DNA of 33,581 nucleotides from Desulfobulbaceae bacterium. Lineage in GTDB: Bacteria; Desulfobacterota; Desulfobulbia; Desulfobulbales; SURF-16. Below, piece by piece: positions 17,085 to 31,537 of this stretch. A program made the position numbers and the translations under genes. Numbering within the stretch: position 1 is the stretch's first letter; every line of letters starts with the position of its first letter. The stretch spans positions 1-33,581 of the forward strand of contig JANTFJ010000001.1 in NCBI GenBank assembly GCA_024763495.1. Reading direction: 5' to 3'. The notes under the pieces were generated by a model. That model did no database searches. It had not been told where the DNA came from and saw only the letters and a program-made list of their open reading frames with translations.

Positions 17085-17113
17085 CTCCTGATTGACATTT
17101 TAATTTAAAGTAA

Positions 17114-17341
17114 CTACTTCCTTCCACGAGAACGAAAAGTTATTCTTCCCCTGGTCAAATCATATGGCGACAACTCAACTGTTACTTGATCGCCAGGAAG
17201 AATTTTAATAAAATGCATTCTCATTTTACCTGAGATATGAGCCAAAACTTTATGACCATTTTCAAGTTCAACTCGGAACATCGCATTAGGCAATGGTTCT
17301 ATAATTTTTCCTTCTACCTGAATGGCATCTTCTTTTGGCAT
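17114..17341 (-). CDS. infA: Translation initiation factor IF-1
   Basis: 75 aa, [51 protein letters not shown]... AAGGAAGG RBS. Confidence 0.95.
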
Positions 17342-19039: not shown

Positions 19040-19184
19040 GTGCCTTGGGGTAACTCGCTGTAAATAGTTTCAAAATTACCTCTTCAGTTTCTTGTTTTTT
19101 GTTACAGCTTCTCAGGAGTAAGGCACTAATAACGAAAAATATTTCGTACAACTAAAATGAATAATTGGGGAGTATCTAATACCT

Positions 19185-19359
19185 GTAAGCGTTCACCAGC
19201 ACCTCATCTTTGCCAATTTGAGGCTGCTTGAATAGCACCTTATGCTGCGCAGGCACAAGTAAGCGAGTAACACGAGACTCCGAATGAAATATCTAAGGCA
19301 CGGGTAATCGCTTAGAGATTTAAATGTTTCAAAGATTTGCTCCCTGGTGAGCCCCTAAC
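19185..19359 (+). mobile_element. C/B-family MITE abutting the secY stop codon
   Basis: Left TIR gtaagcgttcaccag; right end is degenerate (ctggtgagcccctaac). Flanks TAATACCT (19177-84) and TACTACCT (19360-67) match 7/8. The right copy contains the secY stop. Confidence 0.8.
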
Positions 19360-19361
19360 TA

Positions 19362-20678
19362 CTACCTTCTACCCTTAATCCTTCCACTCTTCAGGAAACC
19401 ATCATAATTCTGCGATACAGTAAGAGATTCCATTTGAGATAATGTATCAATTGCAACACCGACAACAATCAATAGCGCTGTACCACCAAAATAGAAAGGA
19501 ACATTCAACTTATTGATTAATATTGTCGGAAGAACGCATACAGCACTGACGTATATAGCACCAATCACAGTAAGGCGAACCATTACCTTATCAATAAATT
19601 CTGCTGTTCGCTTTCCAGGCCTGATACCGGGAATAAAGCCTCCATGTTTTTTTAAATTCTCAGCCACATCTACTGGATTAAATGTAACGGCAGTATAAAA
19701 AAAACAGAAGAAAACAATCATTCCGACATAAAGCAGGGTATGAAGCGGACTTCCCCAACTTAGAACACTGGAAACCTGCTGAATCCAGTCAATTTTAATA
19801 AAACCGCCAATAGTTGCAGGAAACATCATAATAGATGATGCAAAGATTGGAGGAATAACCCCTGACATATTGATTTTCAATGGCAGATGAGACCTTTGTC
19901 CTCCGTACATCTGTCTGCCGACCATTCGCTTTGCATATTGAATTGGAATGCGCCGTTGAGCAGTTTCAAAGAAAATAATCAAGGCAATTACTCCGGCCAT
20001 CAATACCAGGAGAATTGGGAGAAATATTACGGTCATCTCTCCAGAACTAATGAGCTGATAAGTATTAACAATTGCTGCTGGCATCCGGGCAACAATACCT
20101 GCAAAGATTATAAGTGATATCCCATTGCCTATACCACGTTCAGTCATCTGCTCACCAAGCCACATGATAAAGGCAGTACCCGCAGTCAAGGTCAGAACAG
20201 TCATCAGGCGAAAACTCCAGCCTGGAGATATTACAATCATTTCACTACCGGTTGGAGCGGCCATACCTTCCAGGCCGATACTGATAAACAATCCCTGAAT
20301 AAGACTCAGGCCTACAGTAGCATATCGGGTATACTGGGTAATTTTACGTCTACCAGCCTCACCTTCTTTAGATAATGCTTCAAGCTGAGGAATAACAACT
20401 GTCAACAACTGAAATATAATCGATGCACTGATATAGGGCATAATGCCCAAAGCAAATATTGAAAAGTTCTCCAATGCACCGCCAGAGAACATATTAAACA
20501 TGCCGAAAATAGTTCCGGCATTTTTTTCAAAAAAAGCGGCCAGGGCTTCACCGTTTATTCCAGGAGTAGGAATTTGAACGCCGGCCCTGTAGACTGCAAG
20601 CATCAAGAGAGTAAAAATAATACGTTTCCGAAGCTCAGGAACGTTTGCTGCATTCTGCAGTCCACCCGATGTAGCCAT
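19362..20678 (-). CDS. secY: Preprotein translocase subunit SecY
   Basis: 438 aa, polytopic; [12 protein letters not shown] and [15 protein letters not shown] motifs. The stop codon lies inside the target duplication of the adjacent MITE. Confidence 0.95.
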
Positions 20679-23359: not shown

Positions 23360-23419
23360 GTAACTACTTACCGGGTAAGCGCCTTAATTGCGCTGACCAC
23401 CGTAATTGTAACTGGTTAT
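23360..23419 (+). repeat. Short FH left-end unit in the rpsH-rpsZ spacer
   Basis: gtaactacttaccgggtaagcgccttaattgcgctgaccaccgtaattgtaactggttat ends 1 nt before the rpsZ stop codon. No duplication found. Confidence 0.6.
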
Positions 23420-23420
23420 T

Positions 23421-23606
23421 TTACCAACTGGACTTTGTGACACCTGTTAATTCACCACGAGAAGCCAAAGTTCTGAAACAAATACGGCATATTCCGAATT
23501 TTCTTATAAATGCCCTTGGTCTACCACACAATGGACAGCGATTATAGGCACGAACCTTAAACTTAGGGGCGCGCGAACTCTTTGCTCTTATAGATTTCTT
23601 AGCCAA
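23421..23606 (-). CDS. rpsZ: 30S ribosomal protein S14 type Z (zinc form)
   Basis: 61 aa from TTG at 23606 with a GGAGGAAGAGG RBS. (M)[44 protein letters not shown], with two CxxC pairs. The longer ORF-track start at 23648 lies inside rplE. Confidence 0.9.
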
Positions 23607-27883: not shown

Positions 27884-28078
27884 ATCATTCCTCCGTTAAG
27901 TGACTTGCACTATGTTGACTGTCTTTAATACAGCCTGACGTTATGATCATGACAACAAGATATTCAATAATGCATTATATATTCGCATTTCAATCAAATT
28001 ATTGTGCTTTGATCCCTTTTAGTGCCTTACTCCAGATCAAACACGAAGGCACTTATCCAATAAAAGCGTACTAATTTC

Positions 28079-28234
28079 GTAACTGCTCCAGAGCACCGAA
28101 TTTTTCCACCATCAGCCTGGCTTACGTATAGCTAATAGGCGACACCAGACCGATGACGAAAATCTCCGGCACCCTGTAAACAGTTACAGTTCAGTGTTTT
28201 TCACGATCATAAATTTTAAGGTGTGAGCAGTTAC
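28079..28234. mobile_element. FH-arm MITE (the same arm type at both ends)
   Basis: Ends gtaactgctccagagcaccg and ggtgtgagcagttac, with an internal ...ccctgtaaacagttac at 28187. Flanks CTAATTTC (28071-78) and CTGATTTC (28235-42) match 7/8. Confidence 0.8.
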
Positions 28235-28331
28235 CTGATTTCTTCTAGTTCAACAGATTAGTCTATCACTTCATAACTATTCAACGAGAGAATAATTTTT
28301 CTAAAATCGAACAGTTATGTAATATCAAAAA

Positions 28332-28667
28332 CTAAATATTCTCATCAAGTACTACGGTAATATGACTTGATCTTTTTAATATCTTTGTTGCCCGTCCCAT
28401 AGCTCTGGGCCTGATCCTTTTAAGCATCGGAGCCCCATCAACAAATACTTTCTTAACATACAAAGTATCTACATCAATTGAATCATTTTGACTTGCATTG
28501 GCAACTGCTGACTCAATAATTTTTCGTAAAATACGTGCCCCTTTTTTAGGCATGAATCGTAATTTATTGAGGGCCTGTTCGACGTTCTCCCCACGGACGA
28601 GGTCAGATACCAACCTCGCTTTCTGTGGTGAAATACGAATATGTCTGGCAACAGCTCTGGCTTCCAT
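28332..28667 (-). CDS. rplV: 50S ribosomal protein L22
   Basis: 111 aa, [26 protein letters not shown]... Confidence 0.95.
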
Positions 28668-28782
28668 AGCTTTTTAACTCCTGGCTTAACCGGATAAAAG
28701 TAAGAGAAGTAATAATATTATATATTTTCTCTTCTATATTTAAACTTTTATCGCTTAACGCATTTTCATTAATCGAAGATTT

Positions 28783-28936
28783 GTAACCGTTCACCGGGGC
28801 TTCTTGTTTACTTATAACTCCAGCCTGTAGGCATTCTCCAGTGTCTTAGATTAAGTTCATTGGAGGTCTCTGTGCTGCATACTGGTGCTTGTAAGCAGGC
28901 CCAGATGAACAAAAATGAGGTTCTGGTGAAACTTAC
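28783..28936 (-). mobile_element. C/B-family MITE, inverted, diverged
   Basis: Ends gtaaccgttcaccgggg and ttctggtgaaacttac. Perfect duplication GAAGATTT (28775-82 and 28937-44). Confidence 0.9.
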
Positions 28937-29039
28937 GAAGATTTCATCAGGCAGGGACGGCTGGCTGAACATCAGCTTCCCAGGCCCATCATATATCTAT
29001 TACATATAGAGCCCCTTTGCCAGTGATATCAATTATCCT

Positions 29040-29315
29040 TTATTTCGATCCCTTCCTGTCACCTGCATGACTATAAAATGTTCTGGTTGGAGCATATTCA
29101 CCCATTTTTTGTCCAACCATATTTTCAGAGACAAATACAGGGATAAATTTTCTACCGTTATGGACAGCAAAGGTAAGTCCGACCATTTCAGGTAATATAT
29201 CAGAACGCCTTGACCAGGTTTTTATAACCTTTCGTGAACCGGTTTCCCTGGCGTGATTAACCTTTTTCATTAAATGCTCGTCAACAAACGGGCCTTTTTT
29301 TACCGAACGTCCCAC
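29040..29315 (-). CDS. rpsS: 30S ribosomal protein S19
   Basis: 91 aa from GTG 29315, (M)[18 protein letters not shown]..., with GGGAGAGG just upstream. The ORF-track ATG at 29339 adds 8 atypical residues. Confidence 0.9.
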
Positions 29316-29399
29316 AATCCTCTCCCAAATAAATAACATTTTTTGATATTCAGAGCTTATCTACAGAATCGCAATTCTTTTTAAAACTGAACTATGATC

Positions 29400-29554
29400 G
29401 TAACTACTCACGGGGGGTAGGCACCTAATATTCGCTACCCCCTAATTTATAACTGTTTACAGGTGCCGGAGATTTCCGCGATCAGACTGGCACAGCATAC
29501 TGGTGCTGTGTAAGACAGACAGTTCGCGGGAAAATTCGGTGCCCGAGCAGTTAC
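29400..29554 (+). mobile_element. FH-family MITE abutting the rplB stop codon
   Basis: Ends gtaactactcacggggggtaggc and cggtgcccgagcagttac. Perfect duplication CTATGATC (29392-99 and 29555-62). The right copy contains the rplB stop. Confidence 0.92.
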
Positions 29555-30376
29555 CTATGATCTTCTCTTAACAATATCCTTATCCGAAGATTTCCTTTTT
29601 CTGGTCTTGTATCCTTTCGTCGGTACTCCCCAAGGGGTACAGGGATGACGTCCGCCAGAACTCTTACCTTCACCACCACCCATTGGATGATCGTGAGGAT
29701 TCATGGCAACACCGCGTACACTTGGCCTTTTACCTTTCCACCGATTTCGACCTGCTTTGCCGAGTTTGCGGCTTTCGTGTTCGATATTACCAATCTGGCC
29801 AATACATGCCCGGCATTTACGGTGAAACCTCCGAACTTCTCCGGAAGGAAGCTTTACCAGGACATAATTTCCTTCTTTGGCCATCAGTTGAGCTGAGACA
29901 CCTGCACTTCGTACCATCTGAGCACCTTTGCCGATTCTCATTTCAACATTATGAATAATACTTCCCAAAGGGATATTACCCATCGGCAGACAGTTACCGA
30001 TTTTAATATCAACATTTTCTCCTGCCTCAACTATATCACCGACCTTTATCCCCATAGGAGATAAAATATACCTTTTTTCGCCATCAGCGTAGAAAAGCAA
30101 TGCAATATTGGCAGAACGGTTAGGATCATATTCAATAGAGGCGATCTTGGCGGGAATATCAACTTTATCCCTTTTAAAATCAATAACTCTATATTTTCTC
30201 TTATGACCACCACCGATATGCCTGGCAGTAATTCTACCATAATTATTTCTCCCTCCAGACTTACGAAGGGACTTAACCAATTTTTTTTCAGGTTTGTTTT
30301 TTGACAATTCGGGATTGTATATAGTTACTAATGTTCTTCTTCCCGGTGATGTCGGTTTATAGGTCTTTGTTGCCAT
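29555..30376 (-). CDS. rplB: 50S ribosomal protein L2
   Basis: 273 aa; [15 protein letters not shown]...[14 protein letters not shown]. The stop codon lies inside the target duplication of the adjacent MITE. Confidence 0.95.
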
Positions 30377-30524
30377 TGCAAACCCCGATTATATTATTTG
30401 CGTAAAGCTTATCCGTGTCTTACCTTCATTAATTTTACTTTTTCCAGGAGCATAAAATTTGCTCCCAAAGACAAAATCACAAAGGATGAAGGACTCTAAT
30501 TAATAACGATCAAGTTTAAATGCA

Positions 30525-30550
30525 CGTCTTACGCTCTAGCTGAATAGTTA
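30525..30550 (+). repeat. Solo E-type right end in the rplW-rplB spacer
   Basis: acgtcttacgctctagctgaatagttac-like terminus with no detectable partner end. Confidence 0.45.
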
Positions 30551-30626
30551 CTTAAAATTCAATTATTGAATCAATGTCAAATCCTGTCAGCTTAACATTA
30601 CAAGTTCTCTAAATTGAATAATAATT

Positions 30627-30917
30627 CTAAATTTCTTCCAGAAAATCTACACTATGACCCTCAACCAGAGAGACAATAGCCTTTTTCCAATCCGATCTCC
30701 GACCAGCATAACGCCCCAGCCGTTTTTTCTTACCATGCATATTAGCAGTCCGGACTTTTATTACTTCTACATTAAACAACGCCTCAACAGCCTGTTTAAT
30801 CTCAATCTTATTAGCTCTAGGATCAACCTTAAAAACCAGATGGTTGTATTCTTCCTGAAGAGTCATGCCCTTTTCAGTCAAGCATGGTTTTTTTATTATC
30901 CCATAAATAGATTTCAT
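30627..30917 (-). CDS. rplW: 50S ribosomal protein L23
   Basis: 96 aa; IIKKPCLTEKGMTLQEEYNHLVFKVDPRANKIEIKQAVE. 4-nt overlap with rplD. Confidence 0.95.
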   Translation of the reverse strand: MKSIYGIIKKPCLTEKGMTLQEEYNHLVFKVDPRANKIEIKQAVEALFNVEVIKVRTANMHGKKKRLGRYAGRRSDWKKAIVSLVEGHSVDFLEEI

Positions 30918-31537
30918 GGCTGCAACCTCTCTTCAATTTTATCCAGACTAGGCTGAACTATAATCAATTTCTTATACAGCAGGATATCATAAACATTAAT
31001 ACCAATTACAGGAAGAACCTTATATCCCGGGACATTACGTGATGACCTTTCAAGTTTTTCGTCATGTTCCGGAACAACAATCAGGCAATTCTCAACTTTG
31101 AGATTATCCATAATATCAACAAATTTTCTGGTCTTAAATTCCTCAAGTTGAATTTCGTCAATTATGAGAATATTATCAGCTGAATTACGTGAACTCAGTG
31201 CCATACGCAATCCAATCCTTCTGACTTTCTTAGGAAGATTGAAACTGTAGTCACGGGGTTTAGGGCCAAAAACAGTTCCACCGCCCCGCCACACAGGTGA
31301 CCTTCTATTTCCCGCTCTTGCTCGTCCGGTACCTTTTTGCCGATATGGCTTTGCGCCGCTACCTCTAACTTCTGCTCTAGTCTTGGTACAGGCTGATCCC
31401 TGTCGCCGCTTAGCCAACTGCATGCGCACCACATCATGAAGCAAGTGAGAATCAACATCAACCCCAAAGATTGAATCTTGCAAATCTATCTCACCAACCT
31501 TTTCGTTACTGGTGTTATAAATATTGGTCATTGCCAT
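30914..31537 (-). CDS. rplD: 50S ribosomal protein L4
   Basis: 207 aa from ATG 31537 (GAGGGG about 8 nt upstream), [19 protein letters not shown]... The 20-codon extension in the ORF track runs into a family-D repeat. Confidence 0.92.

Follow-up and report, generated by a model that had tools for sequence, protein, structure and literature searches.

A 155-bp MITE with IS66-type ends flush with the rplB stop codon in a Desulfobulbaceae ribosomal-protein operon

The right half of the window, as the whole 33,581-nt stretch of DNA analyzed here is called, is occupied by an S10-spc-alpha ribosomal-protein cluster on the minus strand. In this cluster, rplB was placed at 29555..30376 (minus strand) by its open reading frame, which encodes an L2 protein of 273 aa ending in ...DKDIVKRRS, with homologues 89-98% identical and the Pfam domains Ribosomal_L2_N and Ribosomal_L2_C. 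Since the ORF is placed there, its TAG stop occupies 29555-29557, with the last Ser codon (TCA) at 29558-29560 and bases 2-3 of the last Arg codon (AGA) at 29561-29562, all on the minus strand. The next gene, rpsS (S19, 91 aa), was found as an ORF at 29040..29315 on the same strand with a GTG start at 29315, and S19 of the relatives also has 91 aa and a GTG start. A Shine-Dalgarno-like GGGAGAGG precedes rpsS at 29319..29326 (minus strand), intact and 66 nt downstream of the insertion described below; the same GGGAGA...GTG arrangement is present in a relative (L002). The spacer between the rplB stop and rpsS is now 239 nt long, compared with 76 nt in the native reconstruction.

This spacer contains a non-coding element of 155 bp, of the "FH" type, at 29400..29554, with GTAACT... 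inverted ends. The element starts with GTAACTACTC and finishes with GAGCAGTTAC, the terminal inverted repeat being 10 nt long and 90% complementary; its F end, GTAACTACTCACGGGG, is located at 29400, and its H end, ...GGTGCCCGAGCAGTTAC, at 29554, where it touches the rplB stop. The octamer CTATGATC directly abuts the element on both sides, at 29392-29399 and 29555-29562, with 8/8 identity, and by chance alone a perfect 8-mer match placed exactly at these two boundaries has a probability of about 1.5 × 10−5. A perfect duplication around this element had been reported in the preliminary description, and all its coordinates were correct. The rplB-proximal copy, which reads GATCATAG (GA-TCA-TAG) on the coding strand, had been read as the end of Arg, Ser and the stop of ...VKRRS*, and this agrees with the placement of the rplB ORF. 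The distal copy, described as an orphan stop-containing 8-mer, is indeed present at 29392..29399 and is now part of the rplB-rpsS spacer.

With 155 bp and no transposase gene, the element is well within the size of a MITE (under about 300 bp) and, lacking the gene, is non-autonomous. Within 29400-29554, no ORF was found apart from the tail of a 42-aa shadow frame that reads into the element. RNA folding of the whole unit gave −60.3 kcal/mol (z = −4.2), and the terminal helix of the element RNA begins at the first base past TAG. Neither a promoter-like nor a terminator-like site was found on the coding strand of the element, the sole terminator-like hit being on the plus strand inside rpsS (29276-29293). 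Searches with Rfam across 28000-31000 gave no match at E up to 1, and no plasmid-borne relatives of the element were matched by blastn.

The native end of rplB was examined in relatives. The closest L2 proteins in a large protein collection are 98, 96, 92 and 89% identical, all of them from Desulfobulbaceae. The 21 closest homologues inspected end in ...VK(K/R)RS, ...VRKRS or ...VRRRS or else differ in one terminal residue, the exceptions being two proteins that stop at ...VKKR and one with an added K. At the DNA level, rplB ends in ...TC(A/G)TAG, and the protein in ...(K/R)RS, in 7/7 relatives' loci (L2 89-98% identical), and the element is absent from the rplB-rpsS junction in all seven. In the three closest relatives (L001, L002 and L003; L2 98% and 96% identical), the last 24 nt of rplB are identical to those of the window and GATATTGTTAAGAGAAGATCATAG is followed by TCC.. 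or TCT... with no element, which is the empty site, continuing with T, that had been predicted from the window. L004 and L005 present ...CGGTCGTAG and then a spacer of 56 nt, while L006 and L007 present ...AGGTCATAG and then a spacer of 15 nt.

When 29400-29562 is removed from the window, ...AGAAGATCATAG is directly followed by TTCAGTTTT... (TTCAG... after the junction), and the 3' end of the resulting 76-nt spacer, ATTTGGGAGAGGATTGTG, matches that of L002, ATTTGGGAGATAATTGTG. In addition, 29555 is exactly the position at which BLAST homology of L001 with the window sets in. From the ends of the relatives' genes, the match of the reconstructed spacer and this starting point, it follows that the C-terminus is native and the 8-mer derives from the host. 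The same 8 bases end rplB in element-free relatives, so the element did integrate within the final codons of an essential gene, as first proposed. Orthologous L2 ends are the same as that of the window, and an element-derived L2 C-terminus was ruled out by the 21 homologues and the seven loci.

The element belongs to a family with many dispersed copies, and with filled and empty sites between relatives, as in other MITEs. The 16-nt F end has 20 matches in the window with up to 3 mismatches, versus 0.17 expected. Units of 80-450 bp with the form GTAA...TTAC and 8 flanking bases repeated with at most 1 mismatch were scanned with shuffled sequences as the null, giving 10 units in the window (6 perfect) versus 0.08 (0 perfect) after shuffling. 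GTDB representative genomes scanned with the 20-nt H end gave at least 64 loci; among the H-end matches listed, most came from one Desulfobulbaceae bin, and the others from Desulfocapsaceae, Desulfurivibrionaceae, Desulfopila and the complete genome of Desulfosediminicola flagellatus. Metagenome contigs scanned with the F end gave 7 loci. Altogether, 39 complete elements with 8-bp duplications were found in 442 kb (window and related loci), with a canonical length of 156-160 bp, and a matching 8-mer plus an F end was found for 24/72 H-end sites. The duplication has a fixed length of 8 bp and a sequence that differs in every copy, which means that the 8-mer is not element sequence. On alignment with these other copies, the boundaries of the rplB element were not shifted, and the 8-bp duplication proved to be the rule of the family.

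Many spacers within 12800-33000 of the window are inflated, measuring 180-830 nt (for instance, rplV-rpsC 448, rpsS-rplV 372, rplC-rplD 345 and map-infA 834 nt), compared with 15-135 nt in L002 and L006, and GTAA-type termini are present in most of the inflated spacers of the ribosomal cluster. An F half derived from an FH element (GTAACTACTTACCGGGTAAGCGCC...GTAACTGGTTA) is found at 23360-23420, a few bases from the rpsN (S14) stop at 23421-23423; this copy is truncated or rearranged and shows no recognizable duplication. At 17104-17123, the 3' end and stop of infA read ...GGAAGGAAGTAG|TTAC, and the opposite strand mimics a terminus (GTAACTACTTCC), a match of 10 nt that is probably due to chance.

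The element ends GTAACTACTCA(C/T)GG, GTAACTGCTCA and GTAACTGCTCACAGG match the inverted repeats of ISDge4. This element from Deinococcus geothermalis, a member of the ISBst12 group of the IS66 family, has the repeats GTGACTACTCAGCA / GTAACTGCTCAGCA and an 8-bp direct repeat (PMC12898284). The start GTAACT(A/G)CTCA shares 11 identical nt with GTAACTGCTCAGCA and is one base off GTGACTACTCAGCA, and both elements show a direct target duplication of 8 bp, whereas the rplB element differs in having only 155 bp and no transposase gene. Two other end types in the window, GTAAGCGTTCACC and GTAACCGTTCACC, are similar to the canonical ends of IS66, GTAAGCGTCCGG and GTAACCGTCCGG (PMC12888890). An 8-bp duplication with GTAA ends is an IS66-family signature, and the element has both the 8-bp direct repeats and inverted repeats that start with GTAA like those of the family members. 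No end pair 0.9-3.5 kb apart with matching flanks, as expected for an autonomous element, was found in the 442 kb of loci and the window, so family membership rests on the ends and on the length of the duplication. The mobilizing transposase would be of IS66 type, as judged only by the similarity of the ends.

A logo built from the 20 nt that flank each of 67 H ends gave the target preference of the family. Positions 2-7 of the duplication are 70-94% A/T against a background of 52%, while positions 1 and 8 are only 40-51% A/T and the two bases beyond the duplication reach 90-94%. The target is therefore roughly a 12-bp quasi-palindrome, WW|S-WWWWWW-S|WW, and the rplB site, AA|GATCATAG|TT, fits it. 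A symmetrized weight matrix was trained on 51 sites not at stops and applied to the 73 viable windows of the native spacer, that is, those in which an insertion would spare rplB, rpsS and the rpsS ribosome-binding site. The rplB window scored 4.9 bits, ranking 7th of the 73, with 4% of the weighted probability, and all stop-overlapping windows together accounted for about 8% of the target-weighted probability in the native rplB-rpsS spacer. The position at rplB is thus favored but not extraordinary.

Very probably, then, a non-autonomous MITE of the IS66 family, similar to the ISBst12 group, entered GATCATAG, its position being the outcome of target preference and purifying selection. The target would consist of the last five coding bases of rplB plus the TAG stop. 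From the way in which DDE transposases work with staggered cuts, the two nicks would have been made 8 bp apart, one past the first base of the Arg-272 codon and one directly after TAG, and fill-in repair of the gaps would have put one GATCATAG copy on each side of the element. The rplB-side copy preserves the reading frame, the last residue and the stop, the distal copy is inert spacer DNA, and the ribosome-binding site and start of rpsS, at least 66 nt past the insertion, are not touched. Both essential genes thus remain intact, and the only change is 163 extra, strongly self-pairing nt in the polycistronic mRNA, presumably with no effect on fitness. Purifying selection would clear insertions that break genes or translation signals, and the survivors in compact operons would be found at or just past stops.

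In the preliminary description, the rebuilding of the 3' end of the ORF by the duplication was taken as the only reason why the insertion was tolerated. This is true, and the stop is indeed regenerated by the duplication, but the rebuilding is automatic with staggered cuts and applies to every insertion with a target window that ends at the stop or beyond it. Since such cuts always leave the target complete on either side of the element, the event is formally equivalent to an insertion right 3' of the stop, the extra copy being downstream.

The frequency of stops within duplications was determined for 148 GTAA-type termini with a flank of at least 500 nt, all taken from other genomes of the Desulfobulbales and none from the window; in 41 of them, an ORF of at least 150 aa ended 0-99 nt away. 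The stop was inside the duplication in 11 of the 41 (distances 2, 2, 2, 2, 3, 4, 4, 4, 6, 7 and 7), versus 11% expected from uniform and 13% from target-weighted placement. This excess of about 2-2.5-fold (P = 0.004-0.013, post hoc, with a null restricted to positions downstream of a stop) is suggestive for the related genomes, the test having been devised after seeing part of the data and with crude ORF-based gene calls. It hints that the modelled target preference and simple selection are perhaps not the whole story. By side, stops overlapped the duplication in 8/24 H ends, from six different genomes, and in 1/10 cases with an F end alone, while complete elements with clean duplications gave 5/33, near the null. 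Four further ORFs stop at the element's own G|TAA. A global null over all "viable" windows (P about 1 × 10−5) was set aside, since the gene caller overstates non-coding space.

Several individual gene ends were also inspected. At L019 3112-3311 (coaD), the element entered just ahead of a native ATGA stop/start overlap and split it, and its tip gives the last codon and the stop so that the protein length is the same; the duplicated 8-mer, GATAAAGG, keeps the purine-rich bases before the downstream ATG. The ATGA of an amidohydrolase-like gene at L038 4909-5067 is split in the same way, with the duplicated 8-mer CATCTCTC and again no change in protein length. At L050 3667-3856, an insertion cost a gene for a penicillin-binding protein (about 690 codons; 692 from stop to stop) its last six codons (NPLKWK), and the gene now ends at the GTAA tip. 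At the H end in L021 (5587-5606), a 622-codon ORF runs 54 nt into the element, and its last 18 codons are element-encoded. An apparent element-supplied stop in L042 was dropped, as the 144-aa ORF looks like an antisense shadow frame. Within the window, at secY (19177-19367), an element at 19185-19359 has canonical IS66-type ends (GTAAGCGTTCACC...) and the duplication TAATACCT / TACTACCT, 7/8 identical, which contains the stop (CTA, 19362-19364) at a distance of 2 nt. The terminus of this element on the side of secY is degenerate (...GAGCCCCTAAC).

A bias of the MITE family towards gene 3' ends, whether through the target choice of the transposase or through an evolved "stop-compatible" design, would also explain the position at rplB, although we consider it doubtful. 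On this view, the W-rich target is similar to the surroundings of stop codons, and either GTAA tip provides a TAA in frame if the cut is displaced inward by one frame. The stops found inside 11 of 41 duplications instead of the expected 11-13% speak for such a bias, together with the four ORFs ending in G|TAA, the ATGA junctions of L019 and L038 split without loss, the spread of the eight H-side cases over six genomes and the second case in the window at secY. However, the hypothesis was built and tested on overlapping data with a crude gene caller, and neither the F side (1/10) nor the complete elements (5/33) follow the excess. With about 12 insertions into spacers of about 50-120 nt in the window, about one stop-overlapping case, or one to two, is expected by chance with no bias. 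Moreover, survivors could accumulate near stops simply through selection against hits on promoters, ribosome-binding sites or terminators farther downstream.

In its broadest form, the proposal would be that the IS66/ISBst12-type MITEs of the Desulfobulbales are systematically adapted to gene 3' ends, with a W-rich 12-bp target that matches stop contexts; this seems unlikely at present. If it were true, the duplication would preserve the stop or the downstream ribosome-binding site, the invariant GTAA tip would act as a portable in-frame stop for cuts within the last codons, and dense colonization of essential, tightly packed operons would become possible.

The insertion itself was traced in environmental samples. 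The rplB-rpsS region is present in six hydrothermal-vent metagenome runs, and Logan contigs of four of these runs, from two studies, were compared with 28900-30500. The left junction is crossed without mismatch in X1 (28900-29429), X2 (29302-29429), X3 (29202-29407) and X4 (29053-29415), and the right junction in X2 (29480-29938), so that both junctions are found among several samples. Neither an empty allele nor a joint skipping the 163 bp was found in the contigs of the four runs, a kind of data that cannot prove absence, and no contig of these runs extends across the whole element. Linkage of the two junctions would be sufficiently supported by the identical 8-mer and the conserved gene order. 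The summed word depth on the element in the metagenome contigs is 35-200x that of the flanks, as would be expected of a family with many copies.

Regarding the age of the insertion, the rplB copy is 76% identical to the cross-genome consensus in the alignment, and its H-side inverted repeat is short of the family consensus by a deletion of 3 nt; for both reasons, the insertion is not very recent. From sequence comparison, it is younger than the separation from a lineage whose rplB DNA is about 8% different. In L001, an element of the same family is found at 2566-2760, 10 nt past the rplC stop, a position where the window has none, and this separate insertion implies that the family has been active independently in sister lineages. 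It is very improbable that the rplB insertion is ancestral and that the relatives are revertants after precise excision: the copy is not young, given its consensus identity and its 3-nt deletion, and it is fixed in the four runs examined, but 7/7 relatives lack the element, their spacers differ in sequence and in length (15, 56 and 135 nt) and bear no footprint, a single insertion is a far more parsimonious account than precise excision several times over, and the rplC-side element of L001 points to independent recent activity in each lineage.

Finally, that the repeat is a coincidence, a part of the element or an assembly chimera is scarcely credible. In its favor, the window probably comes from a metagenome bin, repeats of the family break assemblies, with many matches at contig ends, and the L001 contig stops 98 nt past the rplB stop. 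Against it, the 8-mer differs per copy and would rarely match by chance, the junctions occur in separate contigs of several runs, the rplB-rpsS order is conserved and the same 8-mer stands at both junctions.

Insertion of an IS66-family MITE into the last bases of rplB, positioned by target preference and selection, is thus the preferred reading. The event is real, neat and mechanistically ordinary, and its position is striking yet explicable. It illustrates how deep a transposon can enter an essential gene harmlessly, with a nick that would lie in codon 272 and an L2 protein that is unchanged. The general point, seldom stated, is that, with an n-bp duplication, a gene offers its final n bases, the stop among them, as a "free" target. 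Together with tip-supplied stops and split ATGA junctions, the rplB case helps to explain how MITEs come to fill nearly every spacer of the ribosomal operon. The case also bears on annotation, as elements that border directly on stops are to be expected in these genomes, in gene calling as well as in repeat masking. If the modest stop enrichment were genome-wide, it would offer a handle on the target choice of the IS66 family, which is poorly characterized.

With respect to known systems, the element resembles the REPs of E. coli in having a stable stem-loop that starts a few nt from the stop, within the limit of about 15 nt. REPs at that distance reportedly lower upstream expression with ribosome stalling, a finding attributed to Liang, Rudd and Deutscher (Mol Cell, 2015), and by analogy it may be asked whether the stop-flush hairpin at rplB would lower L2 synthesis in the same manner. 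The mobilization of REPs is of the RAYT/IS200 type and produces no 8-bp duplication.

Bacterial MITEs such as Correia/NEMIS, ERIC, RUP, YPAL and MITEAba12 are co-transcribed with neighbor genes, and sometimes they fuse to the 3' ends of ORFs or supply the stop codon (PMC2229807; PMC6382973). The present family is similar to them in its small size, inverted termini, target duplication, many copies and strongly folding transcript. In most classical MITE families, the duplication is TA or 2-9 bp long and the origin lies in other IS families, whereas the elements described here are distinguished by the 8-bp duplication, the GTAA tips and a very high density in ribosomal-protein operons. MITEs that abut or fuse with gene 3' ends are therefore already known in bacteria, and the element at the rplB stop is another case.
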